A stretch of 61,140 nucleotides of DNA, filler included, from Squatina squatina (lineage: Eukaryota): assembly GCA_031763465.1 (NCBI GenBank). It is 4 parts of 4 records of this genome, joined end to end, with 100 filler letters (N's around TTAATTAATTAA, not from the genome) between each part and the next. Parts side by side here need not be neighbours in the genome. Positions count along the whole stretch, not along the records: positions 1 to 12,523 come from JARFOE011049290.1; 3 more parts are not named here. One strand, 5' to 3'. A model generated the notes under the pieces. The model worked only from the letters and a program-made list of their open reading frames with translations, did no database searches and had not been told where the DNA came from. The position numbers and the translations under genes were made by a program. Of the stretch, positions 1-55,149 are shown piece by piece (the first letter of the stretch is position 1; every line of letters begins with the position of its first letter).

Positions 1-265
1 GATGGGCAAAGTGCTAATGTACTGGCCAAAGCAAAGTTTCAGATTTAGTAGATATGAAGATGCTATTGTACTGACCGGAGAAGTTGTATCTGATTTAGTA
101 GATAGCGGAAAAGCTGGTGCACTGACGAGAGAAGATGCATCTGATTTAGTAGACGGTCAGAGTGTGAGAGCACTGAGCTGAGAAGGTGTAACTTATTTAA
201 TAGGCAATGAGAGTACAAGTGTACTGACTAGAAAAGTCATGTCTGATTTAGTAGATGGTCAGAGC
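1..265 (-). repeat. Degenerate 51-bp (17-codon) tandem repeat encoding Ser/Thr-rich PSTKSD... units with stop codons
   Basis: TCTGATTTAGTAGA-like motif recurs at ~40, 89, 140, 191 and 242. A minus-strand frame reads PSTKSDMTFLVSTLVLS..., PSTKSDASSLVSAPAFP, LSTKSDTTSPVSTIAS, with stops at 259-261, 193-195 and 157-159. Confidence 0.7.
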
Positions 266-266
266 A

Positions 267-3200
267 CTAGTGCTCACTGTTCACCGTGGTCTCAGTCTCA
301 CTGGTCACCGTGAGCGCAGTCTCACTGGTCACCGTGGGCTCAGTCTCACTGGTCCCCGTGGGCTCAGTCTCACTGTTCACCGTGAGCGCAGTCTCACTGT
401 TCACCATCGGCACAGTGTCACTGGTCACTGTGGGCAGAGTCTCACTGGTCGCCGTGGGCAGAGTCTCACTGGTCACCATGGGCACAGTGTCACTGGTCAC
501 CATGAGCGCAGTCTCACTTGTCATTGTCGGCGAATTCTCACTGATCACTGTGGGCGCATTCTCACTGGTCACCGTGGGCACAGTGTCAGTGGTCACCATG
601 GGCTCAGTGACACTGGTCACCGTGAGCGCAGTGGCACTAGTCACCATGGGCTCTGTCTCACTGGTCACCGTGGGTAGAGTCTCACTGTTCACCATGGGCT
701 CAGTCTCACTGGTCACCATGGGCACAGTGTCATTGGTCACCGTGGGCAAAATCTCACTGGTCACCGTGGGCTCAGTCTCACTGGTCAGCATGGGTAGAGT
801 CTCACTGTTCACCATGGGCAGAATCTCACTGGTCACCGTGGACACAGTTGCAATGGACACTGTGGGCACAGTCTCACTGGTCACCATCAGCTCAGTCTCA
901 CTGGTCACCGTGGGCTCAGTCTCACTGCTCACCGTGGGCTCAATCTCACTGGTCACCGTGGGCACAAATGCACTGCTGGCGCCAGGCACAGTTGCACTGG
1001 TCACCATGGGGACAGTCTCACTGGTGGCATCAGGCACAGTCGCACTGGTCACCGTGGGCACAGTTCCATTGCTGGCAACAGGCACAGTCTCACTGGTCAC
1101 CATGGGCATAATCACACTGGTCACCAAGGGCACAATCGCACTGGTCACCAAGTGCACAATCACACTGGTGGCAAAAGGCACAGTCGCACTGGGCACCATG
1201 GGCGCAGTCTCACTGGTCACCGTGGGCGCAGTCTCACTGGTCACTGTGGGTGCAGTCTCACTGGTCACCGTGGGAACAGTGTCATTGGTAACCAAGGGCA
1301 CAATCGCACTGGTCACCAAGGGCACAATCGCACTGGTGGCAACAGGCACAGTCGCACTGGTCACCATGGGCTCAGTCTCACTTGTCACCATGGGCACAGT
1401 GTCATTGGTCACCATGGGCAACATCTCACTGGTCACTGTGGGCGCAGTCTCACTGGTCACCGTGGGCAGAGTCTCACTGGTCACCGTGGGCATCGTCTCA
1501 CTGGGCACTGTGGGCTCAGTCTCACTGGTCATCGTGTGCACAAACGCACTGCTGGCAACAGGCACATTTCCACTGGTCACCATGGGGACAGTCTCACTGG
1601 TCACCATGGGCACAGTCTTACTGGTGGCGTCAAGCACAGTCACAATTGTCACCGTGGGCACAGTCGCAATGGTCACCGTGGGCACTGGCGCATTGCTGGC
1701 AACAGGCACAGTCTCACTGGTCACCATGGGCACAATCACACTGGTCACCAAGGGCACAATTGCTCTGGTGGCAACAGGCACAGTCGCACTGGTCACCATG
1801 GGCACAGTTGCACTGGTCACCATGGGCACAGTCTCACTGGTAATCGTGGGCATAGTCACACTGTTGGCAACAGGCACAGTCGCACTGGTCATGGTGGGCA
1901 CAGTCTCACTGGTCACCATTGGCATAGTCTGACTAGGCACCGTGGTCTCAGTGTGACTGGTCACCGTGGGCACTGTCTCACTGGTCACCGTGGGCAGAGT
2001 CTCACTGGTCACCGTGGGCAGAGTCTCACTGGTCACCATGGGCACAGTGTCAGTCGGTACCGTGGGCACAGTGTCAGTGGTCACCGTGGGCACTGTCTCA
2101 CTGGTCACCCTGGGCTCACTCTCACTGGTCACCGTGGGCACAGTCTCACTGGTCACCATGGGCTCAGTCTCAATGGTCACCATGGGCACAGTGTCAGTGG
2201 TCACCGTGGGCACAGTGTCAGTGGTCAACATGGGCAGAGTCTCACTGGTCACCGTGGGCACAGTGTCAGTGGTCACCGTGGGCACAGTCTCACTGGTCAC
2301 CGTGTGCACAATCTCACTGGTCACCATGGGCTCAGTCTCAATGGTCACCATGGGCTCAGTCTCACTGGTCACCGTGGGCACAGTCTCACTGGTCACCGTG
2401 GGCTCAGTGTCATTGGTCACCATGGGCTCAGTCTCACTGGTCACCATTGGCAAAATCTCACTGGTCACCGTGAGCAAAATCTCACTGGTCACCGTGGGCT
2501 CAGTCTCACTGGTCACCGTGGGCACAGTCTTACTGGTGGCGTCAGGCACAGTCGCAATTGTTACGGTGGGCACAGTCGCAATGTTCACCGTGGGCACAGA
2601 CACACTGGTCACCACGGGCACAGTTGCATTGCTGGCAACAGGCACAGTCTCACTGGTCACCAAGGGCACAATCACACTGGTCACCAAGGGCACAATCGCA
2701 CTGGTTGCGACAGGCACAGTCGCACTTGTCACCATGGGCACGGTCGTACTGGTCACCATTCGCACAGTCTTGCTGGTCAACGTGGGCAGAGTCGCACTGG
2801 TGGCGACAGGCAGAGTCTCACTGATCAACGTGGGCAGAGTCTCACTGATCACCGTGGGCAGAGTCTCACTGGTCACCGTGGCCAGAGTCTCACTGGTCAC
2901 CGTGGGCACAGTCTCACTGGTCACCGTGGGCACAGTCTCACTGGTCGCCATGGGCGCAGTCTCACTGGTCACCGTGGGCTCAGTCCCACTGGACACAATT
3001 AATGCAGTCTCACTGGTCCAAGAATCCATATTTGTGGATAAACTGGAAGGCAATAACGATGCTGTGGAAGTTGTAGGCTGTGCTTCTGAACTGGGCGCTG
3101 GTCTGGTTCTAGCAAGCAAAGAGGAGCTTTGCATTGATACAGAGAGACTGTGCGATAGCGGCGAAGTTGGACTCCTCATGGACGTGGTTGTACTTTTGAT

Positions 3201-3301
3201 GTGGTGGCTCACAGTCCTGGAGTTGATAGAAAGCGCTGTCTGGGATTCGGTGAGTGTCGGGAGCATCTTGGTCATGGAATGCGCTCTGGTCATCGTTGTC
3301 A
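267..3301 (-). CDS. Mucin-like PTS exon, ~1010 aa, made of 8-aa repeats (consensus T-V-P-T/M-V-T-S-E); probable 3' exon of the cobalamin-carrier-like gene
   Basis: Uninterrupted 1011-codon minus-strand frame that is Thr/Val/Ser/Pro/Glu-rich. Candidate acceptor ccaacttttcacag ends at 3302 (phase 1). Stop TAG at 267-269; an internal donor A|gtgagc near 277 is also possible. Confidence 0.75.
270..3020. repeat. 24-bp coding tandem repeat, ~114 units (CTGGTCACCGTGGGCACAGTCTCA on +)
   Basis: Strict 24-bp period visible throughout, with no frame-disrupting indels. Confidence 0.97.
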
Positions 3302-4989
3302 CTGTGAAAAGTTGGAGACACTTTGGAAAGTAATTATTGGAGGCAACTGACAGTGACTTCAGACATATTCAGAGACGCAAAATGGACAGGATCGCATTTG
3401 CTAACCGTTCTGTTATTCAGTTCTGTAAAAATTAATGGCACTGAATATCAGGCAGTGCGTTTAAAAGGAAAGACACGGGACAACGAAGCCATACCGCCTG
3501 ATTCGCGCGCCTGCCCTTGTCGAATTTCACCCACAACTTCTGGTGACACGCTTAAAATCAGCTGTTATTTAAAGTGAAGCTCAGGTACCAACAATCTCTG
3601 CATTGCAAAGTGTGACCATCGTCATATGTGAAGATCACTGTCGATATCTACATTGGAGAACCTCCCACTGGGTGTGAGGCCAAGCAGATGGCTCAGGGCT
3701 TCCAATTCTTCCACCCGAAAACTGAGCAAAGCAAAGGGTTCAGGAAGGCCAAGGAGTGAGTGTGGAAAATCCCCACTTCAGTGTTGTTGGCAAATACCCC
3801 GAGCAAATATTGTGAAACTGCGGTGTAATTTAAAACTAACTGATTAAAACCATAAGGCTATAATTATCGGGACTGTGAGATGTTCAGCATCCTGTAGGAG
3901 GAGCCCAGAGTTTTACTCTTCACTACTCTCTGAGATGGGTGAAAAAGGCAGAAGTCAGGGTAGTTAGGAGAGGCCCTTTGTGTGAATTCACTCCCACTAC
4001 AAGGTGGTTCATTTCAAACTGCTCTCTGAAGTTGATTCGGAAGCCACAAGCCAGGACAACTCGATCTGCCCAATATGTGACTGCAGTCCAGCGCCAAAGT
4101 GGTTGACTCTTAACTGCTCTCTGAAGGGACCTTCATTTGGATCAAATCAATACCAGTAGTTCAAGGAGAAGTCCCTCCATCAACTTTTCAAGGACACCTA
4201 AAGGTGGACAATAAATGATAGCCTTGCCACCGTGGCCCATGTTCTGAGAATTTACTTTCTGCTCTTTAAGTAGCCTACCATCCTCCCAACTCAAATTTAT
4301 TCTGACCTGGTTTAACAGGGAAGTTGTCAAAAACGGCTATCTGAAATCTTGCTCGTATTTCGGAGTCTCTAAATCTAATCAGAAGCAACAGAAGGCCAAC
4401 ATCTGCTTCGGGTCTTCTGACATTCTTGCTGTTCATTGAATCACAGCTTTTATTCTGTTTTGCTCAGATTTAAGGTAATTGGAAAAAAAGTACCGGAGGC
4501 AAGAGTTTCTTTTGTTTTTTTAAAGAATGAGTTGTTACTTTCTGGAATGCACTGCCTGAAAGGGCGGTGTGAGCAGATTCAATAGTAACTTTCAAAGGAG
4601 AATTGGATACATAATGCAAGGGAACTAATTGCACGACTATGAGGAGATGGAAGGGCACTGGGATTAATTGGATTGCACTGTCAAAGAGCCAGCACACGCT
4701 CAATGAGCAGAATGGTCTCAATTTTTACGGTGTGCTTCTATGATTCAATTACATTCACTGTTTCTTGTACATTTTGATTCGTCACCCAGAGCGAGTAGCT
4801 TCTCATCTGTCCATGCTGGGAGCAGAGCATCCAGAAAACTGTGGAGCTGATCATTGGACGCTAGGAAATGAACCTTTCCAATTTTGCTTCGGTTATTTTC
4901 ATTGCACGTTCAGCTATCGCTGTGTAAACTTCCCGCCACATTCTCCATTATAAACAGCAGCTATCAGCTCTTAAAGCTGAGGAGTGGGG

Positions 4990-5250
4990 TCAATTTAGAT
5001 ATGGTCGGGTACCCCACACATCTGGAATCTCTCTAGATATGGATGGGTTCCCCACACATCTAGAATCAATTTGATATGGATGGGTACCCCACACATTCGG
5101 AATCAATCTAGATATGGATGGGTACCCCACACATCTGGAATCAATCTAGATATGGATGGGTACCCCACACATCTGGAATCAATCTAGATATAGATGGGTA
5201 CCCCACACATCCAGAATCATTCCAGATATAGATTGGGACCCCACACAGCC
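4990..5250. repeat. 38-bp intronic minisatellite, ~6-7 copies
   Basis: GATATGGATGGGTACCCCACACATCTGGAATCAATCTA repeated in tandem. Confidence 0.9.
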
Positions 5251-5431
5251 GGACACCCTCTGACCAACCATTGAAGGACACACCTGATATTCAGCTCTAT
5301 TGAAGTCATTGGGACCGAATATGAGGCAGAGCGGATAACGGACGATTAAAGCACAATGCACGCTTTACATCCTCGCTGTGTCGAATTTCCCCCTCCCTCA
5401 TACTTGCTCCGGTCTGTAGCACTACCCTTAC

Positions 5432-5618
5432 ATTTATAAACAGGACAGCTTATCCTGCTGACATCCAGGTAACTCCTTCCTCCAAGGGCTATCGCCGCCT
5501 CTGACACTCTTGTTAGGTTCTCCAAGTTTCCGTGAGACATTTCATGCAGCATTTTCCGCACAGATTTGGTGCAATTATAGACATGTGAGGTGTACACGTT
5601 TATGTTTTCAGAAAGTGC
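5432..5618 (-). CDS. Exon of a transcobalamin/haptocorrin/intrinsic-factor-family protein (end of alpha domain)
   Basis: Acceptor ttttcaccccag|, donor T|gtaagg. Translates ALSENINVYTSHVYNCTKSVRKMLHEMSHGNLENLTRVSEAAIALGGRSYLDVSRISCPVYK, resembling TCN1 AL...WNCQQTLNTVLTEISQGAFSNPNAAAQVLPALMGKTFLD...C. Confidence 0.85.
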
Positions 5619-6049
5619 CTGGGGTGAAAAGAAAGCTACAATAATGTTACTATTTCATGTCAATGCTCCAGAGATCATTTTATCTTAGCACATGTGATCT
5701 GTGTTTGAAAGCTTTGTAGCTTAAAGTTTCAGTCAATGGAAATAACAATCGAGGAGATTTACACGGGGCAGCAGATGGATACATTCTCACTGGTCACCAT
5801 GGTTACAGTCATCACTCGTTTTACGCCATCGCATGAATTCGTAATCTACCCAAGATGAATTCTGACCAGGATACAATTCAGAATAGGTTACTATGTGGTG
5901 AGAACACACTTAGACCACTGTGAGTCGATCTGGCCTGTTTAGACCAATTAGAGCTCTCTGCCCAGTTCTGTTCTCCATATTACTAAAGTGACACCGAGGC
6001 ACTTTTGAAGGTGCAAAGATATTCACAAGGATGATAGCAGAACTGGTTA

Positions 6050-6480
6050 TAAATTCCCAGAGAGACTGAACAGGCTGGGACTTCTGTTGCCGGAGAGGTG
6101 AGCAGAAAGAAGTCTTCAAAATTATGAAGGGATTTCATACAGTAGACATGGAGAAGATATTTCCACTTGTGGGATGAAACCAAAAATTGGGTCATAAATA
6201 TAAGGTAGTCACTAATGAATCCAATAAGAAACTCAGGAGATACATCTTTGCTTAGAGAATGATCAGTTTGAATGTGGATCCCGCTGGTAAAATGAGCGAT
6301 TGAGGCGAATAGCATGAATAAATTTATGGGCAACCAATAAAAGTACATGAAGGAGAAAGGAAAAGAAGAATATGTTGACAGGGTAAAATAAATTACGTTG
6401 CCTGCAGGCTTGTCTGGAGCATATACACGGGCATAGATCAGTTGGTGTAAATTCTGTGCTGTAAATTCAATGCAAGGTTC
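6050..6480 (+). mobile_element. Decayed CR1 LINE 3' fragment
   Basis: Degenerate RT C-terminal pattern (RLGL...FKIMKGF..VD.EKIFPLV) followed by a CR1-like tail. Confidence 0.6.
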
Positions 6481-6739
6481 AACTAGTTTCTCAATATAAC
6501 CCACCATCCTGTTAATAATGTTTATCACCACTTCACGGATTTGATTTGATGAGCTTTGGGTTAATTAGCATTCTTTGGAGGTAATTTAACTTTGCCGATG
6601 GTGCAAATGACCAATTTCGAATGAACCGCCCACGGTAAATCACGCTCGATTTTCCTTTTCATTGAAGTCAATGGACGGGAAAAATGGAAGTGTGAAAATT
6701 GACGGCGAATTTGATAGAACTCATTTTACATGTTCACCA

Positions 6740-7110
6740 AACAACAGCAACAAATCAACAGTAACTTTTATTTATACAGCGCCTGTAATGCAGTAAAACG
6801 TCCTAAGTCACTGCATAGGAGAGCTTTCAAACAATATTTAACACCGAGCCAACATAAAGAGATATCAGGACTGCTGGCCAAAAGCTTGACTAAAGAGGTA
6901 GGTTTTATGGAACGTCTTTAAAGAAGAAAGAGGGGGAGAGGCGAGAGGTTTAGGGAGGGAATTACAGAGCTTAGGGACACGACAGCGAAAGTCTCAGCAG
7001 CCAATGGGGATACAGAGGGCAGAATTGGAGGAGCTCAGGCTTTTCAGAGGGTTGTGGGATTGGGGGAAATTACAGAGACAAGGAGTGGCAAGGCCATGTA
7101 GAGAGTGAGA
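6740..7110 (-). mobile_element. L2-type LINE 3' end
   Basis: TTTATTTATACAGCGCCT...AAAGAGGTAGGTTTT...GGTTTAGGGAGGGAATTACAGAGCTTAGGG is typical of a reverse-oriented L2 tail. Confidence 0.6.
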
Positions 7111-7410
7111 TCAAGGAAGCCAAAAGATAAAATCATCCTTCAAACCTCTTTCAACCCTCCGCTCCTGGGGAGTTCAATCCCAACAATGGTCTAGAGCCGT
7201 CTCCACATCTTCCACTATGCTGCACTTTGGGTTTGTTCACAATGAACGTCACCTGAACACATTAAGCACCGATACACCAATATCGCAATATTAGTTGTAA
7301 GCTCTTGTTTACAGTCTATCAGTTAATGTGGTGTGGAGAAGCTGCTATGTATTAATTGCCCTTAACTGCAATTAAACTAATAACGAATTTCTAATTTCAC
7401 ATCAACTTAC

Positions 7411-7586
7411 CTGCATGGCGAGCCCTGTACTGCTCAAGCCCCCAATGATCCCGTCCTCTCTCACTTCACTGAGAATCCGCCTCATTATGCTCGTTAAAGC
7501 CCTTGTGATGTGAAGTCGAGCTCCGCCTATTGGTTGTTGTGAATGTATCAAACACCTCAGACTAAGTGCAGCAGTGGCCATTGAAT
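7411..7586 (-). CDS. Exon of a transcobalamin/haptocorrin/intrinsic-factor-family protein (alpha domain)
   Basis: Acceptor ttcctgtgttgtag|, donor CAG|gtaagt. Translates (D)SMATAALSLRCL...RRILSEVREDGIIGGLSSTGLAMQ, matching the family motifs DTxAMAxLALTC and ILS...GxIGNxxSTGxAMQ. Phases fit both neighbouring exons. Confidence 0.9.
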
Positions 7587-7889
7587 CTACAACACAGGAA
7601 ACAAATACCATTTTTTAACAGAGAAAATTTCACAGGAGAATCGGTAACAAAAGGAAACAGAAGTAAGATATTGGAAAAGACCCTGAAGGCAGAAGGGGAT
7701 CATTTTATTTACACAGCGAGTGGGTGTAATCTGGAATGCACTACCTGAAAGGGTGGTAGGAGTGGATTCAAAGGGTATTGGATAGATACCTGAAAATAAA
7801 AAACAAACAGTGCGATGTGAAAAGTAGCTAAATGGGGCTGAACGGATGGTTCATTCAAAGAGCCAATTTCATTGCTCACTTTTCACCAA

Positions 7890-8815
7890 CTATTATCCGT
7901 GAACAAGGGTAATCTCTTTCAAAATTCCATCTAATAGGTATCTTCACTGACCAAAACCTGTAAACCCAGGTCACCTCTATCGAACCTCCATCAAATGGAT
8001 ACATTAACTGACCGTGACCTGTGAACCCATGTTCACAAGGACGATGGACAGAATGGTGTCCATCTGCAAGGTTGGATGATTAGATGATGTCCGGAGCCCA
8101 TGACGCATGAGAGATCCGAGAACCCATTGCTGAAGAGACACTTCCCAACTTTCCACTCATTTTACTCTCAGTCCGTTGCCCAATGGAGTCTCTCCCCAGC
8201 AGAAGTTTAAAAATGCCTGAATGCAGAGACTCGGCCTTGTCCTGAACTATACAGATCTTAGAAGAACTTGGGGCAAAGGGGGCAAGGCTGCGATGCTGAA
8301 ATGCTACTTGTGATAACACATGCAAGTTTGAAATTGGCCTTGAGCGGGAATGCAGTCCTGCTGGTAATGTATTTTGCGATCATTATGCACCCCCGCCCGA
8401 TATTTGGTTCTACTGCCTGTTTTACACGCTCACCCAGGTCAAATTTCACCGCACACTCTTCAAGAACTATCACCTGTGAAGCAGGGTAATCTCTTTCAAA
8501 ATGTCATCAAATAGATATCTTCACTGACCAAAACCTGTAAACCCAGGTCACTTCTATCAAACCTCCATCAATTGGGTATCTTCACTGACCATAACCTGGA
8601 ACCCAGGTAAACTCTTTCCACAACTCCATCAATGGGTATCTTCACTGAACATAACCTGTGAACCCAGATAAACTCTTTCTACAACTCCATCAAATGGGTA
8701 TCTTCACTGACCATAACCTGTGAACCAAGATAAACTCTTTCAAAACAGCATCAAATGGGCATCTTAACTGACCGTTACCTGTGAACCCAAGTAACCACTC
8801 TCTACAACTCCATCA
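7890..8815. repeat. ~60-62-bp minisatellite in two blocks (~7890-8035 and ~8475-8815) separated by unique sequence
   Basis: TCTTCACTGACCATAACCTGTGAACCCAGGTAAACTCTTTCAAAACTCCATCAAATGGGTA-like units. Confidence 0.85.
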
Positions 8816-8867
8816 GAAGGATGTTATTGGAACAATAAAATGAAACGTGGTGTCTGCACATACATAC

Positions 8868-9023
8868 CTACAGGTAGTTCTTTCACATGTTGAGCGATAT
8901 GCTCCTCCTGAGCCTGAGCAAAATTATTAATGATAAAGCCAGGGACAGGTTCCTCGTCCTGACACAGCGCCAGCATTGCCAGGTTGGCTTCAGTAAAGGC
9001 CTTTAGAGAATATCCAGCGTTGT
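8868..9023 (-). CDS. Exon of a transcobalamin/haptocorrin/intrinsic-factor-family protein (alpha domain); missed by the ORF track
   Basis: Acceptor gtattttacag|, donor G|gtatgt. The 156-bp phase 1-1 exon reads NAGYSLKAFTEANLAMLALCQDEEPVPGFIINNFAQAQEEHIAQHVKELPV, aligning with TCN1 NGTPLTNYYQLSLDVLALC...FSV. Its last G plus AT of the next exon gives the conserved Asp (VDS). Confidence 0.85.
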
Positions 9024-11039
9024 CTGTAAAATACAGTGACAGATTCTGGCATTAGTGATGTGATTCACGTTTGACAAACGGCAAAGACAGATGTGAGAAT
9101 CCGACACTGGTTCGTTCTACATCCTCTTAAACAGGCCAATTATGCTACACCTGAGCCTCCTAACACCTTACTTCATCTCACCCGAGCAGCTTACCGTTCT
9201 ATTTATTTCTCCCTCATGTACTTGTCTAGCTTTCCCTTTAATGCAACAATACCATTCACCTCAACTTCCCTTTGTGGGAGCAGATTCCACATTCTCACTC
9301 ATCTTCGGGTAAATAAATTTCTCCTGAACATCCCCTTGCTTTTACTCGTGACTACTTTATAGTTATGGCCCCGAGTTATAGTCTACCCTGCAAGTGGAAA
9401 CATCTGCTCTACGCCTATGCTGTCGACACACTTCATCATTTTAAAGACTTCTCTTAGATCACCTCTCAGTCTTCAGTGTCCAGATGAAAGAGCCCAGGCC
9501 TGGTCGGCCTTCCTTGCCTAATAACATAGGTAATAATAAGTAGTTAAGTAAATGATCCAAGTGTTTAGTTTCAAGGGTAGTATTTTAAATAATTGTCTTT
9601 ATAAACCAGTAGTCCGCGATCATATTCCCATTAGGACTTATGTCAATTAGTTCCTTTAATATGTGCTGGGTAAATATCTGGTCTTTTCCGGGTTTGGAGG
9701 TAATGGGAAGAGGTAGAGACTGATAAAGTAATTATCTACTGATGTTTACAGCGGCAGGAATCAACTGAGCTGGCAGTGGGACTGTTGATTAACCGGATAG
9801 CAGCAGACTGTTATGGGAATAGAATTCGATTTTTTTTTTAGATTAAAACAGGCTGAGGTGAGCTTGAGACGGGAGGTTATGCCAGGAGTTACAGATTAAG
9901 ATAAGACTGGGTTGTAGGTCATGTGGATAGATAAAGACATTCGATCGGATTGGAAATAATGGCACACATATAGGCTGAGAGGAAAATTGGATTGGATTTT
10001 TTTAGGAATATGTGAAAAATCAGACCGGGATGGGATTAGCGTTTACGAGTCAAGTACAGAATGTGATAAAAATGAAATGGGGATCCTGGAAACAGGCATA
10101 GAATTATATAGGAATGGAGTTGAAAGCTATAGAGATAGGTATGGAATAAGATCACAATTGGATTGGAGGTAATGAGCCCTGAAAGAGGCTGAGATAGCAA
10201 GGGGATTGGAGGCTACATTCTCAGGTACAGACTGAAATATGAGTGTCATTGGAGTTAATGAGGGCTGGGGCAGGCAAAGATAGTGAAATTGTATGAAATT
10301 GTATGGACCTTGATCTTCTGGAGCCTGTGGATTGAAGGGTTGTTTTTTTTGAAGTAGGCTGGGTTGGGGTTGCTTAGAATTACACAGGATTTACAGCACA
10401 GAAACAGGCCATTCAGCCCAACCAGCCCGTGCCGGTGTTTAAGCTCCACTCATGTCTCCTTTTCCTAAGGATTTCGCCAAACTTTCTATTCCCCTTCCCC
10501 TCAGATATTTATCTAGCCTGCCCTTAAACGCATCTAAACTATTAGCCTCAAGTGCCTCATTCATTTAGCAAAGCAGTGATATATAATTTTATACTATTTG
10601 ACAGAAGAACGTGTAGGTTGAAGGCACCAAACATAGAATCACTTTTTTCAGAGGCTATGGAAGTGGAATAGGGGAAATACTACAGTGAAACAAATCTGTT
10701 GGGAGGTCAGCGGGAAATTGGGGCATTTAAGGGGAGGCAGTCGAAGGAGAATCAAGGCTGAGGAAAATGATGGAAATTACATTGATCTGGAAGTAGAATC
10801 TTCTAATTTGTTCCCTACAAGTTACCCTGAGGTTTCGTGAAACGAGCAGAAGTCAAACTTCCAGAGGGCGTTTATTCAAGGCTCTGTTCAAATGAAACAT
10901 CACTTTTATATTCCAGCCACCTTGCGATAAATCCACACCTGCTATTAGCCACGCTGTGTCTGTGCACCAGCTTTTACTGATTTGTATTAAGGGACACTCT
11001 AAACTCTTTGCTCCTTCTCAGCTCTTGGACTCCCGGCAT

Positions 11040-11185
11040 TCCACTGGAGTAGTGCAGGAAGTGCTTTCGTGACAGAGGCGCCGTCCTTTCGAAAATATGT
11101 TGAGCCTGAGCTACCTCCTGTGTGTTAATTTGACTTTTAAAATTACCCTCTTTGAAGATGAGAAAGGAATTCTGATTTCCTGAAT
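11040..11185 (+). mobile_element. DeuSINE-like SINE fragment
   Basis: AGTGCAGGAAGTGCT...CAGAGGCGCCGTCCTTTCG...TTTGAAGATGAGAAAGGAATTCT resembles the Deu core. Confidence 0.45.
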
Positions 11186-11244
11186 GAGACTTTGTCGCGA
11201 TTCCTTCCATGCTCAAATAGCTGTTTGGAGCTGCCTTGCTGTAC

Positions 11245-24875: not shown

Positions 24876-27744
24876 CTGTAGTTAGTGTTTTTTATGAGGG
24901 ACTCAATAAATGAACGTTTGTGAAACTATGAGGCTTTAGTGTTGAATGCCAGAACTGAAAATTTGACAAGAACCATTTTTTCTTTCAAGATTTATGTCTA
25001 TAGGTAAGAGCATAAAAAGATGAAGACAGACAAAACTTAATAACAAGCATCACTGGTTGACAAGAAGATTCAAGCTTGTGTTAAGTAACAGAAGGTGAAA
25101 TTAAGTATTGTGGTTTGAACAATTGTCAATTTCAAAACCACAAAGCTAAATTAATGCAAAGCTAATCCAGAGAGAGAGAAGAAGGGAGAACGAGAACATG
25201 CCAGAAACTACTATTGAGGATATTGGCCAATGAACGCTAATGAATTGATATGAGAATTCTCTGTCTGCTATTTTAACAGGGGTGTTAACAAATGGGTTAA
25301 CAGCTCCACTATTATAGTAGATGAATGCCATATGAACACCTTAGCATTGGCCGCTAATATTGACAAAAGTACTTCCTACTCTGTATTGTTTAAATGTCCA
25401 GAATTCTAACCAGATGCCCTGTTATCAGCAACAGATGAATGAATGTTGTTGGACCCAATGAATCAGTCTGTGTCAGAGCCAAGGGTTAAGATGATCCGTC
25501 CTGGTCTTATTCACAAACCACATCCAACTGAGCAGAACAATGAAGTCGACAAATGAAGCATTATGGCCTGTATTGCCACACTGTATAGTAAATCTGAGTG
25601 ACAGATAACTGAAGGAGCTAGCAGGCCCCTTTAAAGAATACCCTGAATATGACAGATAAATTGTGTTTCATTGTAGCTGTTATATGACAGAACAGTATCC
25701 ACTATAATTAAACTGATGGAGGGTATGATGAATAAAAGGCCAATCATACAGATTTAATTATACACAGCCAGCAATGTGAAGTGTGCAAAATGGAATTAAT
25801 GAGCACAATAAAGTTTAAATGTCTCTCTACATCATCTAAATCAGTTGGTAGAAAGCTGTTACCCAAGGAATATCCTGCATGGCTCCTCTGCCATTATTTA
25901 GAAGTGAAAATTTCATTTGGACGTAAACACAGAAATATGCAAACATGATGCTGTGTTGTGCTTTTGCACAAAATAGTTATGTGCCAGCTTACTCTGTGAA
26001 ACATTATTGTTACAAATAAGAACATTTATCTGGAATGAGAATTATTCAATAGTTTCACAACTGCTCACTTTTTGGATTCCTCATGACAAAAACTGTTCTA
26101 ATTTTAAAAAATGGCAAACATAGAGAGTTTCAACATCCATTATTCTTTGAAAACTCCATGTTGAAAATACCACTTGTCTCCCCACCCCTTAAGCATTAAA
26201 CCCTGAGGATTAGACAGTGTCAAATAGTCAATTAGTGATACTGAGCAGGATTCACATGGGACAAAATTCATCAGCTAAAAGAAAAATTGGTGCCATTTGT
26301 GGAAAATAAAAGCAAAAGTAGTACCAGCCCTACAACAAAAATTGATACTTTATGAAAATAATTGTACATTTTATATTGAATTTTAATACAAATCTCTTGT
26401 CTAGAACAATGAGCTGTGTTCTGACAAATAATCACCCTTTCATTATAATATTTTGATGCACCACACCCTCCAAAATAATATACTTTATTTTAACTCTCAA
26501 TATCATACACCATATTACATAACTGTTTTGTAAATTAACTCCGTTTTGTATAATTCTCACAGATGGTTTTAAAGGAAAGTGTCTATTGAATTGGAATTTA
26601 TTTTTCTGCTGACACGTGACAGTTCTATCTTCTGTAAAATGAACACTTACTTAATAAAAATAGGTTTTAAAAATATCAAGCAAATATCAATTCCTTTCAA
26701 TTATTTTTTCACTACATTGTGAAATGTTGTGATTAAAGGCGACTTACCAACAGTATTGAGCGCTGTGAGCAGTGACCCTCACACTGCAGTTGGAAATTAG
26801 TGTTGTTTTGCAAACATACTGTACGAAGAAGATCATGCAGCAAGCAACAATGTAATTCATTTGCATCCGTCATATGTTCAGGCTAAGGCATATGCCAGCC
26901 AAATACAGCAGGCACTTAACTCTGGCAAAGGTCATAAGAAGGAGGCAGAAAGAGGAATGCTAGAAAGACAGCAGCCTAGGACACCAGCTGTCTCCATACT
27001 TTACTTTGCGTCCCCTGAGTGTCAGCTGTAAGATCTGCATGTGACTGGATGCTGACCATACTGACATCAGTGGGGAATAAAAAGCTTGACAAAGGTACAA
27101 CTATGTCATGATGTGATGGCAGTCCTGCCGAGCTGACACGGAGCTGTGGTTTCTTTGATACTTCCAAGGTAGATCCCCAGAGCCTAAGTCCAATCAATAC
27201 TTACAGTAACAGTTCTTAATCCTGTGTCCACTCACGCTCTTTGTATAACTAACTGGCACCACTGAAGCTGCATGTATATTGAAATATGCCTCTGGGCTAG
27301 AAAGAGGAACAGTGACCTTTCATGAACCTATCATTAAACCTTCTTCGCAATATGAAATTCATCAAACTGAACAATTCCAGCTAATTCTTTAAAAGAGTCT
27401 CTTATCCAATGATTGATTTACGATGAAGACCTGGGTACTCTATTAAAAGCTTCTCATGCTCCAGTGGCCCTTGTACAGAAACTGACAAGACACCCTAGTG
27501 TTTGGTTGGAAGAGATATTTGCTACTAACAGTACCAGTACCATTTTTTTCCCAGACTAATTTAACAAAGTGCACAGAACATCTGGTCAGGGATAACATGC
27601 TGTTTCCCTTTTTAAAATGAATGAATCATCCATTGCAATTCAATGTAGCAATCATATTAATCAACAAAACATTCTGAAGTCACTACAATATGACATCTAT
27701 TCTGTAATTGCAACCTTTTATTTTTGCCTCCCTCCAAACTTAAG

Positions 27745-28995
27745 GAACCCATGAGTGTTTAACTGAACCCAGCCAGAGACAGCACTTGCAGTGGAGGAGA
27801 GGGAGTTAAACCAGTGAGAGTAGAATTGAACACAACCAGAGTCAGCACATTCAGGGGAGGAGAGAAAGGAACCAGTGAGTGTGGAACTGAATCCAGCCAG
27901 AGTCAGCACCTTCAGGGGAGGTGAGGAAGGGAAATAGTGAGTGTAGAACTCGACCAAGCCAGAGTCAGCACCTTCGGGGGAGGAGAGAGGTAAGAACCAG
28001 TGAGTGTAGAGCTGAACCCAGCCAGAATCAGCACCTTCACGGGATGATTCAACGGGAACCAGTGAGTGTAGAACTGAACCCAGCTAGAGTCAGCACCCTC
28101 AGGGGAGGATAGGGAGAGAAACCAGTGAGTGTAGAACTGAACCCAGCCAGAGTCAGTATCTTCAGGGGAGGAGAGAGAGAGGAACCCATGAGTGTTGAAC
28201 TGAACCCAGCCAGAGACAGCACTTTCAGTGGAGGAGAGTGGGGAGAACCAGTGTGTGTAGAACTGAACCTAGCCAGAGTCAGCACCTTCAGGGGAGGAGA
28301 GGGAGGTAAACCAGTGAGAGTGGAACTGAATTCAGCCAGAGTCAATAACTTCAGAGGAGGAGAGGGAGAGGAACCCATGAGTGTAGAACTGAACCCAGCC
28401 AGAGTCAGCACCTTCAGTGGAGGAAAGGGTGAGGAACCAGAGCGTGTAGTACAGGACCCAGCCGGAGTAAGCACCTTCAGGAAAGGAGAGGGAGGTTAAC
28501 AAGTGAGTGTAGAACTGAACCCAGCCAGAGTCAGCATCTTCAGGGGAGGAGAGGGAAACCAGTGAGTGTAGAACTGAACCTAGCCAGAGTCAGCACCTTC
28601 AGGGGAGGAGAGCGGGGGGAACCAGTGAGTAACTCTGAACGCAGCCAGAGCCAGCACCTTCAGGGAGGAGAGGGAGGGGAACCGCTGAGTGTTGAACTGT
28701 ACCCAGCCAGAGTCAGCACCTTTCGGGGTGGAGAGAGAGGGGAACCAGTGAGTGTGGAACTGAACCCAGCCAGAGTCAGCACCTTTCGGGGAGGAGAGTG
28801 AGGTGAACCAGTGAGTGTAGAACTGAACCGAGCCAGTATCAGGACCTTTAGGGGAGGAGAGAGCGGAGAGCCACTGAGTGTAGAACTGAACCGAGCCAGA
28901 ATCAGCACCTTCAGCGGGGGAGAGGGAGGGGAACCAGTGAGTATAGACCTGAACCCAGCCAGAGTCAGCACCTTCAGCGGCAGAGAGGGAGGTGA
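27745..28995. repeat. ~63-bp minisatellite, ~20 copies
   Basis: AACCAGTGAGTGTAGAACTGAACCCAGCCAGAGTCAGCACCTTCAGGGGAGGAGAGGGAGGGG units, with occasional indels. Confidence 0.95.
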
Positions 28996-30502
28996 AGGGG
29001 GAACCCTACTTACTCAATACGTGATGTTGTCCTCGCTGTAGAGTTAGGGAATTGGACAGACGATAAGCCTAGTTAGGATGACTTGCTCGGGCTGCACCCT
29101 GAGACGAACGGCACTGTGGGAGAAATTTTGATCGAGACAGAACAGCCCTGTGGAAAGTTATTGGCTGTGAAACAAGGAAACATGACTCTTTTTTCTGATA
29201 ATGAATTTTGAAATGAAGTAAATGATCCAAAACTTGTGTGAATGTAGGTTTAGAAGAAGAAATCAACAATTGAGGCAAAAAACCCGAGTCAGGACCGAAG
29301 AGAGGACCACAAGGCCTGATGGGAAATCTTTGGTCAACCCGGGACTATAGGAAAGCTGCAAACAGGAGAACAAAGANNNNNNNNNNNNNNNNNNNNNNNN
29401 NNNNNNNNNNNNNNNNNNNNNNNNNNNNNNNNNNNNNNNNNNNNNNNNNNNNNNNNNNNNNNNNNNNNNNNNNNNNTGGTATAAACATTGTCCTGGCAGA
29501 AAAAAAAGTTTCAAAGTGTTGGGCAGTGGGTGGGGCTCGCCCATTTTAATGAAATACCAGTTAAAAACATGAGAAGCCTGGGGAGTGTTAACTAACAAAT
29601 GTGCTTGTAAGTGGCAATTAGAAAGCATCTGCCAGTCATCATGAACCTTTTGCAGCAGCTAATGAAACATTTTACCCTGACAAATCTAGACAATTCTAAA
29701 AATCCACTGTAGAGTATGCAGTTGCTGTTAGTGATATAGGCACATTTTGGGTGGTGGAGGACACCTCTCAGCATGCTTGAGCATGATAAGCATGACAGCC
29801 TCAGCGCTGTCTCTGCTACTCGGAGAACTTGACAGGAACTCCAAAAGAAGTTGCACAATTTAAAATGAAGGACAATGGTAAGGCTTTAACATTACTGTGC
29901 AGGAGCAGAAGGCATATATGCATGAGGGAAAGTTGTACTTATAAAATATATTTATAAAAATGCTGTACTGGCACAGATAAATGTTAGAAGGCATGTAAGG
30001 TGTTAGAATTGAAAATAGCAGGGTTAGATGAGATACCTTGTACATGCCGAGATTGGAAAATGAATGTGCTGCAGGAAGGAACTTCTGTGGTTACTATGAG
30101 GGTAAACATAATTTATACTGTTTTCCTGGGGATTCTGGAGCTTTTCTACCAAATCTCTGCAGAAAAGCTGTTTCAGTCCCCACTGCTCTTATGTTTAAAG
30201 TAAAACCTCACCTTAAATAAAAGGCCACAGCGCGGAACAGGTGATGAACCTCCAGATCTGAAGGCGCTCACACCACAAGAGGAAACATGGTGGAGAAAGT
30301 GTTTGTGTGCCATTGGGTCTGTGGAGTTTTGAGGAGAGAAGAGAACTAATGGTAAGTGTCATGTTAATCAGATAATCAATGACTTGCACCATTTGCTACA
30401 CAACGATATTCATGCACATTGATTGTGCACAAGGGCATAATAATGTATGCAATTTCAATGGGTTTATCTATTCATAATATATCATTTGCTCTCTCTGCAT
30501 AT

Positions 30503-33184: not shown

Positions 33185-33284
33185 NNNNNNNNNNNNNNNN
33201 NNNNNNNNNNNNNNNNNNNNNNNNNNNNTTAATTAATTAANNNNNNNNNNNNNNNNNNNNNNNNNNNNNNNNNNNNNNNNNNNN
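33185..33284. other. Artificial contig spacer
   Basis: 44 N + TTAATTAATTAA (33229-33240) + 44 N. Confidence 0.97.
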
Positions 33285-49457: not shown

Positions 49458-49557
49458 NNNNNNNNNNNNNNNNNNNNNNNNNNNNNNNNNNNNNNNNNNN
49501 NTTAATTAATTAANNNNNNNNNNNNNNNNNNNNNNNNNNNNNNNNNNNNNNNNNNNN
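49458..49557. other. Artificial contig spacer
   Basis: 44 N + TTAATTAATTAA (49502-49513) + 44 N. Confidence 0.97.
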
Positions 49558-50269
49558 AGGCAATATCCTCGTAAATCTCCTCTGTACCCTCTCTAGTGCA
49601 ATCACATCTTTCCTGTAATGTGGTGACCTGAACTACACACAGTACTCGAGCTATGGCCCAACGAGAGTTTTATGCAGTTCAAGTAAAACCTCCCTGTTCT
49701 TATATTCTATGCCTCAGCTAACAAAGGCAAGTATCCCGTTTGTCTTCTTAACCATCTTATCTATCTTCCTTGCTTCCTTCAGTCATCTCTGGACATACAG
49801 TCCAAGTTCCTTCTGTTCATCATGTACTTGTGTCTCTCTATGTTATAAATGTAATAACATTTATTTCCGAGTTTGCAATTAACATATATACAAAGATATA
49901 CATGAAATAGATTTATAACGAACACGGAAGCAACACAGTACAATTAAAAATAAAACTGTTTCATTCAAATACATAAACACAAACACAGATAAACAAAATG
50001 TATTCACAACAACTCACAACTGCAACTGTTACCAATGCACAGATATCAAAACATATTTGAAGTACCGCAATTCAAAGATAGGTTAACTCGCTCTAGTTCC
50101 TCGGCAAATGCTGCTGTGCCTGTTTTCCCTGTACTTGTATGTGAAGGTTTGTCGGGCTGTGGTATATCGTTTCCCAATGATGGGCTGTAATAGGCCACAT
50201 TCACTGTTCTATTTGATGTATAATTATGACCTGGACTTGGGTACAGTGGGCATAATTTCAACATCGACA

Positions 50270-50790
50270 GCTGTCTCATCCCCGTGCACAACCCACTGCC
50301 AAATTAGATTTAGCTCTCCCCACAGCACATTTAACCTTGCCGAAAGAACATTGGTCCAAACTCTGTTGAGGTGCAGCACGTCCAACTGTAACAGGTCTGT
50401 CCTGCGCCAGACCTGATCCCAATGCCCCAGGATTCTGAAGTTCATCCTCCTGCACTGTCCATCCAGCCACGCACTAATCTGCTTTGTCCGACTGCTCCTA
50501 TTCCTTCTAGCACAGGAAATAATACAGAGAATACACTTTTGGTGCTGCTCTTTCCTTTCCTTAACTGCTCCTGCAACTCTGACTGAAGGAACTCATCCCT
50601 TTGCTTATCTATGTCACTGGTTCTCCACATCGTCCACATTCAGCTGTTCCCCTTCTCCACTCAAAATGTTCTGCACCCACTCGGTGATGTGTTTAACCTG
50701 GCACATTGGAGGCAACACACCAACGTGACCCACGTGTACCATTGTACAATCACCCATCTATCCCAGTGACTATCGAATACCCAATGACTT
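50270..50790 (-). mobile_element. CR1 ORF1 SGNH-esterase relic within the macrosatellite
   Basis: Degenerate IGxSIV...VCCL...RDEFLQSE...RRMNFRILGHWDQVWRRTDLLQLDVLHLNR. Confidence 0.75.
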
Positions 50791-51777
50791 AAACTTGAAC
50801 CACTTCTTAATTTCAAAAATACCGTACTAAGAATCATAAAAATCTGCAAAGAAATCAGAAAATTTTCGGTACACTCAGCTGGTCATGCAGCTATTGCGGA
50901 AAGATTTCTGATGAAGGAGTTGTGAAGAAATGTCACAGAACTTAAGCTCGAACAATGCAATCCAGAAACAGTCCTACATTCTAATCCCAGAGCCCCAGTG
51001 TGTGGGTATGGTAACCAAGCCAGAAACCACGCATTATCTGAGAGTTAATGTGTCGTGGTACTTCTTGTAAACTAGTTGCAACAACAGAGATAAGAAATTT
51101 AAAAATAAATGCAAATATTTAAGAAACATCATATTTTCGACACCTTGCTTTGTATCTTCAGAAAACTTGGATATAAGGCATTCGATTCCTTCATCTAAAT
51201 CATTAACATATTTTGTAAATAGCTGATGCCCAAGCACCAATCCTTGCGGGACCCCAAAAGTTACAGCCTGCGAACGAGAAAATTACCCGTTTCTCAGAAC
51301 TCTCTGTTTTTTCCCCTCCAGGCAATCCTCTATCCATGCTAATATAGTATCACAAACCCATGAGCGTGGCAACCGTTTATGTGGTGCCTTATCGAATGCC
51401 TTTTGGAAATACAAAAATACCACACTCACTTTTCCTTTATGCACACTGCTGTGTACATTCTCAAAACAACTCTGATAAATTTGCTAAAATTGATTTCCCT
51501 TTTAATAAACCATATTTTTTCAGCCTAATGATATTATGATTTTCTACAAACCCCGTTATCACTTCCTTAATGATGGAATCGAGCATTTTCACAAAGACTA
51601 ACTGGCCTGCAGCTCCCCGCTTTCACTCTCCCTCATTTCTTGAATACTGGGGTTCCGTTTGCAGGGAGCTGCGGTCCTCACGAAGCAACTCACATATCCA
51701 TCTCCTCTTCCAGTTGCACCACTGGTAGCAGAGGTCGAGGTTGTGCCAGGTTCAACTGCGGAGCAGCCAGCTGAAGG

Positions 51778-52398
51778 ACCAGGTGTTGTATTACTGCACC
51801 GCGGCCAGTGGAGGGAGCAGGTGGTGTAATACTACACTGCGGCCAGTGGAGGGAGCAGCAGTACCAGGCGGTGCAAAACAGCACCACGCGGCCAGTGGAG
51901 GGAGCAGGTGGTGTAATACTGCACCACGGCCAGTGGAGGGAACAGCAGTACCAGGTGATGCAATACTCTACAGCGGGCAGTGGATGGAGTAGCAGTACCA
52001 GGTGGTGTAATACTGCACCACGTGGCCAGTGGAGGGAGCAGCTGGTGTAATACTGCACCACGGCCAGTGTAAGCAGCAGCAGTACCAGGCGGTGTAATAC
52101 AGCGGCCAGTGGAGGGAGCAGCAATACCAGGTGTGGTAATACTGCACCGCAGCCAGTGGAGGAATCTGCAGTACCAGGTGATGCAATACTCTACAGCGGG
52201 CAGTGGAGGGAGCAGCAGTACCAGGTGGTGTAATACTGCACCACGCGGTCAGTGGAGGGAGCAGTTGGTGTAATACTGCACCACGGCCAGTGGAGGGAGC
52301 AGCAGTACCAGCTGGTGTAATACTGCACCGCGGCCACTGGAGGGAGCAGCAGTACCAGGTGGTGTAATACTACAGCGGCCAGTGGAGGGAGCAGGAGT
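51778..52398. repeat. 47/38-bp GC-rich minisatellite, ~14 units
   Basis: CAGTACCAGGTGGTGTAATACTGCACCGCGGCCAGTGGAGGGAGCAG, plus variants lacking 9 bp. Confidence 0.9.
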
Positions 52399-53347
52399 GG
52401 GAAACACTCGCCATCATGCAGAACACACAGACCCAGATATGGGTGCGGTGGAAAGGGATTTTACCCCCACATGCTGGAATTTCAAATCGACAACTTCGGC
52501 ATTTCAATCTAGAACATTGGCATCTGTGATATGAAATTACAGAAAAATAAAATTTAGCAGCTTAAGCAAAATGCCGGTGTAAGTTGTGTTGTCAGAGAAC
52601 AAGTGAACTTTTTAGGCCAATAACTGGAGAAATATCAACACTTAGAATGGATTCCAGGCAGAACAATGATGGTGAAAGCCCTGGAATGATTTAGCAAACA
52701 ATTAGAATGGTTTAGCAAACCATTGGATTGAGCAATGGTTAGAAAACTACAGTTTTTCTGGAGTGCTGATTTGAATCGGCTGAATGGATTTCCTCAAGGG
52801 TAAGGATCTTGTGAAAAAGGTGTCCTCCACAGTCTTTATCATTATTTACCTTAATAACTGTCTGCAAACTCAATAAGACTGGGACTACAATCATCCTGCC
52901 CAGTATTTATTCATTAATCAACATATATCAATCATCCTGAACACGATTTATCCCTCAATCAACAAATCAAAATAACATATTATCTGGTCATTTTCACAGC
53001 GCTGTTTGTGGGAGCTTGCTTTGTGCACTTTTAGCTGCCGTGTTTCCTACATTATAAAAGTGGCGTAAAAAATTAGTTCATTGGATACAAAGTGCTTTGT
53101 GACATCTGGTCATCGAGATAAGCGTGATATAAAGGCAGTCGTTGTTTCATTTATCTGAGTCAGTGAGATAGAAGTTCAGAGCGGGTTGAAGACAGAATTC
53201 AAATTCCTGCAAAACCCGTTCACGGAAATTGTTGGTTGTCATCGTGCCTTGAATCCGGAATATTTGCACTCGTAACATCACAAAGTGCTCGGGATTCAGG
53301 AGCATTGATGTGGGAACCGGTTTTCCTTCTTTCCAACAGTTTCAGCA

Positions 53348-53432
53348 GTGGTTCCAGGATTTGAACGCAGGACCTCTCGCACATCCAGACAATGAACCCA
53401 AAGCTAGAATCATACCCCTAGACCAATGAACC
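53348..53432 (-). pseudogene. tRNA-Pro(TGG)-derived gene with a 15-nt intron at position 37/38; probably a pseudogene
   Basis: GGTTCATTGGTCTAGGGGTATGATTCTAGCTTTGGG[ttcattgtctggatg]TGCGAGAGGTCCTGCGTTCAAATCCTGGA matches vertebrate tRNA-Pro. A and B boxes are intact, but the 3' acceptor strand is damaged and there are stem mismatches. Confidence 0.85.
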
Positions 53433-55149
53433 AGCTGATGAAAGCAACTAAACTCACGAGGTATACATAAGCAAACCATGTGTTGTCCATTCTTGGAAAC
53501 CAGAGCACTTTTGACCGAGACTGCTCTGACATTGCCTTCTCTACCTGCTGCACATTTCAACTCAGAGACATAATGAGCTGTTAGGACGGTAATGTATCGA
53601 GACAGCAGGTGCCCATCCCGAGTGCAGCAGCAGAGTTTCTGCATTAGTTTGGTGCGAGGCCTCAGATTTGACCAATGTATCAGCAAAAGCAGTGAGAAGA
53701 CATGGAGGCAGCAAGTGATGCAACAACCGCCCCGGAAGTGATCATTGCATTCTGTGACTGTGGCCAGTTTTATTTGGACAGGAAGATTACTGTCAGTTCA
53801 CAGCCCTACCCGCCTCTTTCCTCGGCCATCATATTGTTCCCCACATCATCACATTAGGGGACGGTCCGTGCAGATTCACTCATATCCCACCTGGTTTCGC
53901 TGAGGCTCCGGCTGTCACTGATCACCAACTAATACAATCTGTAATTTAATTCCTGTAAAACTCCCTCACAAAGTGCAGGAGCAGATGGGGAAGCTGTGAC
54001 CTCTGTTCAAATACATGCCCAATAATGGAGGATTGTCCTCCTCCAAAGATCAAAGCAGTTCCTAGGTAGACACCGACCGCACCTAATCAGACCAAGGAGC
54101 TTAGTCAGACCAAGGCAGGATGAACATTGACACAGACAGTGTCTACACAGACTCAGACAGTTCCTAACAGACCAGAGAGCTGCGAGACAGACCAATAAAG
54201 CTCCTACACAGCCCCAGACAATTCCTACACCTGCTCATGATGTTAGGAGATAGACACAGACACATAACGGTCCTACGCAGAGCTAGACAGCTAGTACACA
54301 GATCCAGGCACTCATGTGCAGTCTGAGAAACCTCCATCACAGTCCCAAAAGCTTGCCCATGGACTCAGACAGCTACTTTCACAGACGTAGCAACACTGAC
54401 ACGCGAATAAACATGTCCTGATCAACCCAAATGCACGCAAACATATTTCTAGACAGCTCCACCCAGACACAGACACAGGCAGCTCCAACATTGAACCAGA
54501 TAGCTCCAACACGGAACCAGACAGTTCCTAAACTGAACCAGACAGATGCTCCATGGAACCAGACTGCTCTCAGACAGAACCAGAGATCGCCTGCACTGAA
54601 GCAGGGCGAACCGCCACCAGCACAGACTTCCCAACACAAGCACAGACATCTTCTTTTGCAGACACAGGAAACGCCTACACAGATGTATTCAGTACAGCAC
54701 AGACCTATGCAGCTGATACCCTGACCCAGACAGCAGCTATAAAGTCCAAGAGCTCCTCACAGATGTAGACATTTCCTGTACGGACGCAGAGAGCTGAGTT
54801 TTCAGACCAGGACAGCTACTACCCTGTCGCAGGTAACACCTATACATATCAAGAGCTTCCGCCCAGGCATTTTCAGTGTTGATATTTCTCCAGTCATCAG
54901 CCTAAAAAGTTCACTTTTACATTTGGGCCTGTTCCACCTTGTTCGTTCTCTGACAATGTAACTTAAACTGGTATTTTGCTTAAGCTAGTAAATGTTATTT
55001 TTCTGTAATTGCATATCACAGTTATGCCATTGTTCTAGAGTGAATTTTCCAAGTTGTCGACTTTAATTTCCAGCATGTAGCGGTAAAAACCCTTTCCACC
55101 ACACCCATATCTGGGTCTGTGTGTTCTGCAGGATCGGCGAGTGTTTCCC

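Follow-up and report, generated by a model that had tools for sequence, protein, structure and literature searches.

Intrinsic factor (CBLIF; PDB 2PMV, 3KQ4) and haptocorrin (TCN1; 4KKI), the closest described relatives of the gene considered here, carry a PF01122 alpha6-alpha6 barrel (the alpha domain) followed, past a linker, by a beta domain. Natural transcobalamin (TCN2) has the same fold, with two domains and a short linker, and in the accessible portions of PMC4947154 and PMC5599065 its alpha domain is described as folding and binding CD320 alone, without the beta domain or B12. According to the available part of PMC4350170, the skate carriers Tcn1/Gif, Tcn2 and Tcn3 all keep both domains. 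Here we describe a candidate gene of the same lineage and family on the minus strand of a 61,140-nt window from Squatina squatina (the whole stretch of DNA analysed, along which all coordinates are counted). Its best sequence and fold matches are CBLIF and TCN1, with which it shares the conserved Cys residues and an exon boundary at the start of the linker; unlike them, it has no beta domain that we could find, a 1,010-residue tail rich in Pro, Thr and Ser (PTS) in that place, and KAFTE where a TNYYQ-type motif is expected. TCN2 is more distant by sequence. We consider it probable that the window holds the 3' half of a shark and ray paralogue of intrinsic factor and haptocorrin, in which an alpha barrel is spliced to a terminal Thr-rich repeat exon, so that the product would be a soluble mucin with a docking head, lacking the beta domain and a tight B12 clamp.

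Only exons 4-6 of the PF01122 alpha domain are present in the window, numbered by what we take to be the TCN exon order. The exon 4 equivalent (8868-9023, 156 nt, phase 1-1) encodes the KAFTE motif and one conserved Cys, the exon 5 equivalent (7411-7586, 176 nt, phase 1-0) another conserved Cys, and the exon 6 equivalent (5432-5618, 187 nt, phase 0-1) two more; the end of the last coincides with the start of the interdomain linker in two-domain carriers. Each exon is preceded by AG, followed by GT and open in a single stop-free frame. Tested separately, the exons matched PF01122 in collinear order, at profile positions 136-177 (E 0.037, a match that fell under the cut-off), 184-240 (E 3.4e-10) and 250-297 (E 1.1e-6). 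Against the Protein Data Bank (PDB), exon 7411-7586 matched intrinsic factor best and haptocorrin next, and all four Cys columns of exons 4-6 are retained in the window, in its Mustelus and ray relatives and in a Heterodontus paralogue. An earlier reading made from the DNA alone (the sequence-only reading) had proposed these three exons with their GT-AG borders and compatible phases, a transcobalamin-family alpha domain and the linker-start boundary; all of these held.

The mucin-type exon begins at an acceptor whose AG ends at 3302. The T left over from exon 6 joins the first two bases, TG, to give Leu, as the sequence-only reading had it, and the frame from 3299 to 267 then stays open for 1,010 residues before a TAG stop (267-269). 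Its first 109 codons (2973-3301) form a non-repetitive leader with 44% Ser+Thr. They are followed at 285-2972 by 112 in-register units of 24 bp, with the eight-residue consensus VTSETVPT, a mean identity of 86% to the consensus, no indels and no Cys. An ATTAAA at 196-201, 65 nt past the stop and within a region of 51-bp repeats, is a candidate polyadenylation signal. In the computed tail, Pro, Thr and Ser make up 50% of residues and Ser+Thr 39%; it would be an acidic chain of 104 kDa with a pI of 4.05, whose 396 Ser/Thr residues are probably O-glycosylated, judging by composition.

We infer the splice from exon 6 to 3301 from phase and the open frame. Among 75 YAG sites between 5400 and 3250, only those at 3346 and 3301 open a frame longer than 100 residues. 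An open repeat frame is by itself weak evidence of coding, since just 1 of the 72 single-base changes of the consensus unit yields a stop, and the leader, which is not repetitive, is the better evidence. It is open and Ser/Thr-rich in the phase-compatible frame only, the other two frames having stops and Ser+Thr contents of 10% and 9%. Although 195 of 16,853 background windows of the same length were open, none was open with at least 40% Ser+Thr. The Ser+Thr content also jumps at the 3301 acceptor, from 0-20% before it to 35-50% after it.

The closest relatives were found by phmmer with the middle exon as query among 1.84 billion representative sequences. There were four matches, three elasmobranch RefSeq models and one unrelated repeat protein, which was discarded; a fourth model came in as a cluster member. 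Among them is XP_069792302.1 of the electric ray Narcine bancroftii (993 aa), in which PF01122 at residues 72-374 is followed by a 628-residue tail of Thr/Val/Pro/Ser type, with 36% Pro+Thr+Ser and no Cys. PF01122 is the only Pfam family in this protein, so its label, "mucin-2-like", reflects composition. Two near-identical models from Mustelus asterias, XP_078087635.1 and XP_078087636.1, are named "cobalamin binding intrinsic factor-like" and belong to the same subfamily, one matching PF01122 at E 1.3e-49; unlike the window gene, they end before any mucin tail. Over the three exons, the window is identical to Mustelus at 107 of 171 positions, to the ray at 87 of 171 and to the Heterodontus paralogue XP_067874885.1 at 60 of 165, that is, 51-63% within the subfamily versus 36% to this two-domain shark carrier, which keeps SDYYQ and the beta domain. 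There are 32 columns that unite the window, Mustelus and the ray against the Heterodontus paralogue, and 8 that do the reverse. These comparisons suggest that the window gene belongs to a subfamily common to sharks and rays, apart from the two-domain carrier. From skate Tcn3 it is set apart by the description in the available part of PMC4350170 rather than by sequence, and the skate Tcn3 forward primer, which has 0 matches in the window when 3 mismatches are allowed, was uninformative.

Other searches added no member. Word-index protein searches returned no match for exon 6 and only the queries themselves for the ray and Mustelus proteins; a metagenome scan gave 194 pattern matches, 0 of them confirmed; and atlas searches yielded nothing beyond clusters of PF01122 and proteins of similar barrel shape, all feature scores being below 0.9. 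The chimera of alpha domain and mucin first proposed from the DNA is supported by the relatives, among them the ray model with its alpha domain and repeat tail. That no vertebrate B12 carrier with this layout has been described stands in so far as our literature search, thin on subscription journals, found no published description of it; the layout as such already existed as the automatic model XP_069792302.1, whose tail is shorter, more diverged and built on a 24-residue period. The accessible main text of a shark skin mucus proteome (PMC10707392) has 0 mentions of cobalamin, intrinsic factor, haptocorrin or B12. What the locus presents is a real, unusual domain architecture within a known carrier family.

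No beta-domain exon was found in the window by tblastn, by profiles from relatives or by Pfam. Pfam also missed the beta domain of XP_067874885.1, and a blank Pfam result alone is weak. Against the PDB carriers, XP_069792302.1 gave one matching stretch, the alpha domain, and no beta match. As a control, XP_067874885.1 gave two stretches in 7 of 9 PDB carrier sequences, plus a match to an isolated beta chain, so this comparison can detect a beta domain. Beta exons beyond position 1 of the window are unlikely. The predicted fold of the Mustelus relative, from a four-sequence alignment, is a helical barrel (pLDDT 71.9, pTM 0.76), and Foldseek placed intrinsic factor 2PMV at the top (E 5.8e-10) with B12 carriers in the first 13 ranks.

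The alpha-domain motif is altered throughout the subfamily. The TNYYQ of haptocorrin corresponds to KAFTE in the window and to KTFNE and KVLTE in its relatives; KAFTE shares 0 of 5 residues with TNYYQ and 2 of 5 with the SAFYG of intrinsic factor. Of the other positions that we take to contact the corrin (Asp, Asn/Asp, Gln), the Asp is kept in the window, Asn/Asp is replaced by Gly and Gln by Glu. The lack of a beta domain, the stronger argument, and the altered alpha motif, a suggestive one, make tight B12 binding unlikely. The published work, as far as the accessible portions of each paper go, ties the TNYYQ alpha motif to four hydrogen bonds with the corrin (PMC4350170), ranks the cobalamin-beta interface highest (PMC11107200), terms the C-terminal site primary (PMC3331988) and reports that TC-alpha:CD320 was free of cobalamin on purification, whereas TC-beta retained it and needed extensive washing (PMC5599065). 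Fragments of cleaved intrinsic factor reassemble on B12, according to the portion of PMC6257451 available. The sequence-only reading had left open whether the linker was expanded or replaced, and whether the product was corrinoid-binding or repurposed. Replacement fits better, with the frame ending at TAG and no beta exon in the window or the ray model, and with the beta domain missing and the alpha motif altered, repurposing is likelier than corrinoid binding.

Comparison of the tails bears on whether they are homologous. The ray tail has a period of 24 residues with a weaker one of 8, and its consensus includes VTEPTVPT and VTRPTVPV, compared with VTSETVPT in the window. When it is folded by 8, one register fits the window column profile, although 74 of 5,040 column orders are equally good; repeat homology between window and ray is only suggestive. 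For Mustelus, the end of XP_078087635.1 aligns out of frame at 3309-3247 (tblastn, E 3.0), and of about 122,000 possible placements of its last 30 residues, back-translated, the best is at 3318, where they keep register through the AG at 3301. Read one base over, the Mustelus segment is compatible with the window mucin start at 16 of 24 positions and allows x-T-T-M-T as in the window. Of the 50 24-mers of the Mustelus tail, 16 rank in the top 20 at the 3301 region, 11 of them first, and just 1 of 300 shuffles lands in 3230-3400, which makes the location unusual. We infer that the exon starts alike in Mustelus, whose model reads into it in the wrong frame. In a separate observation, residues 370-402 of XP_069792302.1, the start of the ray tail, align weakly to the linker and first beta strand of intrinsic factor. 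Nothing resembling this was seen in the leader of the window, and we take as a lead only the hint that the mucin exon derives from an ancestral linker/beta exon.

A mechanism can be proposed in which the alpha-barrel exons are spliced to the single terminal repeat exon, and the product would probably be a secreted, probably O-glycosylated protein of mucin type without a beta domain. Its signal peptide would lie in exon 1, outside the window. The exon carries a long PTS-rich tandem-repeat domain on one large exon, as mucins do, and the vWD, CysD and cystine-knot features of gel-forming mucins (MUC2/MUC5) are absent from the tail, in which a sequence count found no Cys and a Pfam scan no family. 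There is no sign of a C-terminal membrane anchor, the top 19-residue hydropathy in the last 60 residues being 0.29 in the window and 0.36 in the ray; one internal stretch of the window repeat reaches 2.22. A tail of this kind, without Cys and anchor, would make a soluble, non-gel-forming mucin. MUC7 and lubricin are soluble non-gel-forming glycoproteins with a folded or unique head and a long Ser/Thr/Pro-rich tail, but their heads are unrelated to this one and the likeness is an analogy of layout only. By analogy with the transcobalamin alpha domain and CD320, the disulfide-bonded barrel could serve as a docking head for an epithelial receptor or another mucus component, holding a long hydrated glycan brush at the mucosal surface.

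As to origin, residues 261-343 of XP_067874885.1 form an 83-residue Pro/Thr/Ser/Leu repeat linker with 48% Pro+Thr+Ser, and this protein may stand midway between ordinary carriers and the mucin form. Because of this linker, we propose that the PTS-rich linker behind the alpha domain was lengthened by tandem repeats of 24 bp and that a stop gained before the shark-ray split dropped the beta domain, though the order of events is conjectural. If the proposal is true, a lineage without the beta domain would be added to the B12-carrier family, whose cartilaginous-fish members are all two-domain in the available part of PMC4350170, and a transport protein would have become a mucin through growth of its linker, with an intermediate (PTS-rich linker plus beta domain) in another shark. 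It would also offer a natural test of the role of an alpha barrel in isolation. Genes of this kind are easily overlooked, with the ray model tagged as a mucin and the shark models breaking off short of the tail. The significance is confined to this lineage, and the function is one proposed from sequence. A bolder and rather doubtful version is that this is an undescribed, ancient class of shark and ray mucins, in which a minisatellite exon replaced the B12-gripping half of intrinsic factor, the barrel head ties the glycan brush to the epithelium by way of a receptor, and B12 may be captured only in trans, through pairing with free beta-domain proteins of the mucus.

Several points weigh against the reading of an alpha barrel with a translated mucin tail. 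The 5432-3301 join is deduced from the sequence, and by a crude matrix, from which all splice scores here are taken, the 3301 acceptor reaches 3.6 as against 5.3-7.4 for the three real acceptors. Four other acceptors in the intron score 4.2-5.2, with stops within 1-17 codons. Synonymous changes are not in excess among the repeat variants (15 of 50 seen, compared with 20 of 72 possible). Among the relatives, the two Mustelus models (330 and 372 aa) have the alpha domain and no more than a short tail, and the ray protein is a single automatic prediction that forms a cluster by itself. The tail homology is open to doubt on several counts: the window-unit matrix has 3 hits in the ray tail, a number reached also in 6 of 500 shuffles and with 43 of 1,000 column orders; the window and ray leaders do not align, 890 of 1,000 shuffles scoring as well; and the Mustelus placement score is itself ordinary, 25 of 300 shuffles reaching 58, for a segment that was chosen after the tblastn match had been seen. 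Exons 1-3, and hence a signal peptide, are not seen in the window, an absence that the sequence-only reading had passed over. Finally, the motif of intrinsic factor is also degenerate and yet B12 is bound, so that the motif alone is no proof of loss, and the docking role of the head is a proposal by analogy, its receptor being hypothetical.

One alternative is that the main product is alpha-only. Exon 6 would then be spliced to an exon beginning at 3422, where the leftover T and AA make an immediate stop (3422-3424, minus strand), or to another intron acceptor, and the repeat would be untranslated, either 3' UTR or a downstream minisatellite. The instant TAA at 3422, the four acceptors that outscore 3301, the Mustelus models and a nearly stop-proof consensus without synonymous bias all agree with this. 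Against it stand a unique leader that is open and Ser/Thr-rich from the acceptor on in the phase-compatible frame only, a combination seen in none of the background windows, and 112 units without an indel; moreover, the ray model translates its tail, and the Mustelus tail keeps the acceptor region in a shifted frame. An alpha-only isoform is a serious contender; as the main product we regard it as unlikely. Another potential explanation is that the repeat exon is a giant linker, with a donor inside it joined to beta exons beyond position 1; the product would then be a B12 carrier whose two domains are connected by a long glycosylated tether. Phase-1 donors at 1381 and 517 score 3.6, near the 3.9 of the exon-6 donor, our search for beta exons was confined to the window with the sequence beyond position 1 outside its scope, the shark paralogue has a PTS linker and a beta domain together, and split alpha and beta domains rejoin on B12 (accessible portion of PMC5599065). 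On the other hand, the frame stays open for 248 nt beyond the later of these donors, up to the TAG, after which comes ATTAAA, none of the 3 subfamily models has a beta domain, and the altered alpha motif is common to the subfamily, which leaves a giant linker quite improbable.

The gene could also be a decaying or 5'-truncated duplicate from a multi-copy family that makes no protein. In 9024-61140, neither tblastn nor profiles from relatives located exon 2 or 3, and exon 1 was not found either, while an exon-4 control profile scored E 5e-17; the Mustelus pair, one of whose models has an 8-residue gap, resembles a recent duplication. The simplest explanation for the missing exons is an artificial join at 12524-12623 (N44, a 12-base linker with stops in all six frames, N44), which is no part of the gene and cuts it about 3.5 kb upstream of exon 4, together with 25 gaps upstream in all, and their absence was for this reason rejected as proof of a pseudogene. 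Neither the three exons nor the 1,010 codons contain a stop or frameshift, the four Cys and every splice dinucleotide are kept, and we give this account little credence. Least probable, and very much so, is that an 89-nt GALK2-like exon at 15702-15790 is spliced to exon 4 as a GALK2-TCN-mucin chimera, or that a GALK2 intron harbours the gene. The exon lies on the same strand and ends in phase 1, in frame with exon 4, and neither a motif search of the window nor Pfam in 3302-15701 turned up another GALK exon. But agreement in phase 1 is common by chance, the relatives have ordinary alpha-domain N-terminal halves, and the two pieces are separated by the artificial linker and two gaps of 100 N; the fusion was rejected on account of this join.

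The N44-linker-N44 pattern is repeated exactly at 33185-33284 and 49458-49557. Since all three of these gaps are artificial, the neighbourhood across them is not to be trusted. The GALK2-like exon itself (minus strand, AG/GT borders) matches human N-acetylgalactosamine kinase (PDB 2A2C, E 5.5e-6) and PF10509. Within the candidate gene, the intron between exons 5 and 6 contains a 193-codon open frame (5986-6564, minus strand) with no Pfam match. A 316-codon frame at 11620-12567 on the minus strand, with no Pfam match at E 0.01, may represent a LINE reverse-transcriptase fragment, which it resembles by eye. Further along the window there are a 63-bp minisatellite at 27744-28996 with about 20 copies and a strong purine skew, and two large inverted duplications, each spanning about 2.2 kb at 80-86% identity (49822-51949 with 57299-55150, and 52403-54584 with 61140-58929), which hold 38/47-bp and 21-bp minisatellites.

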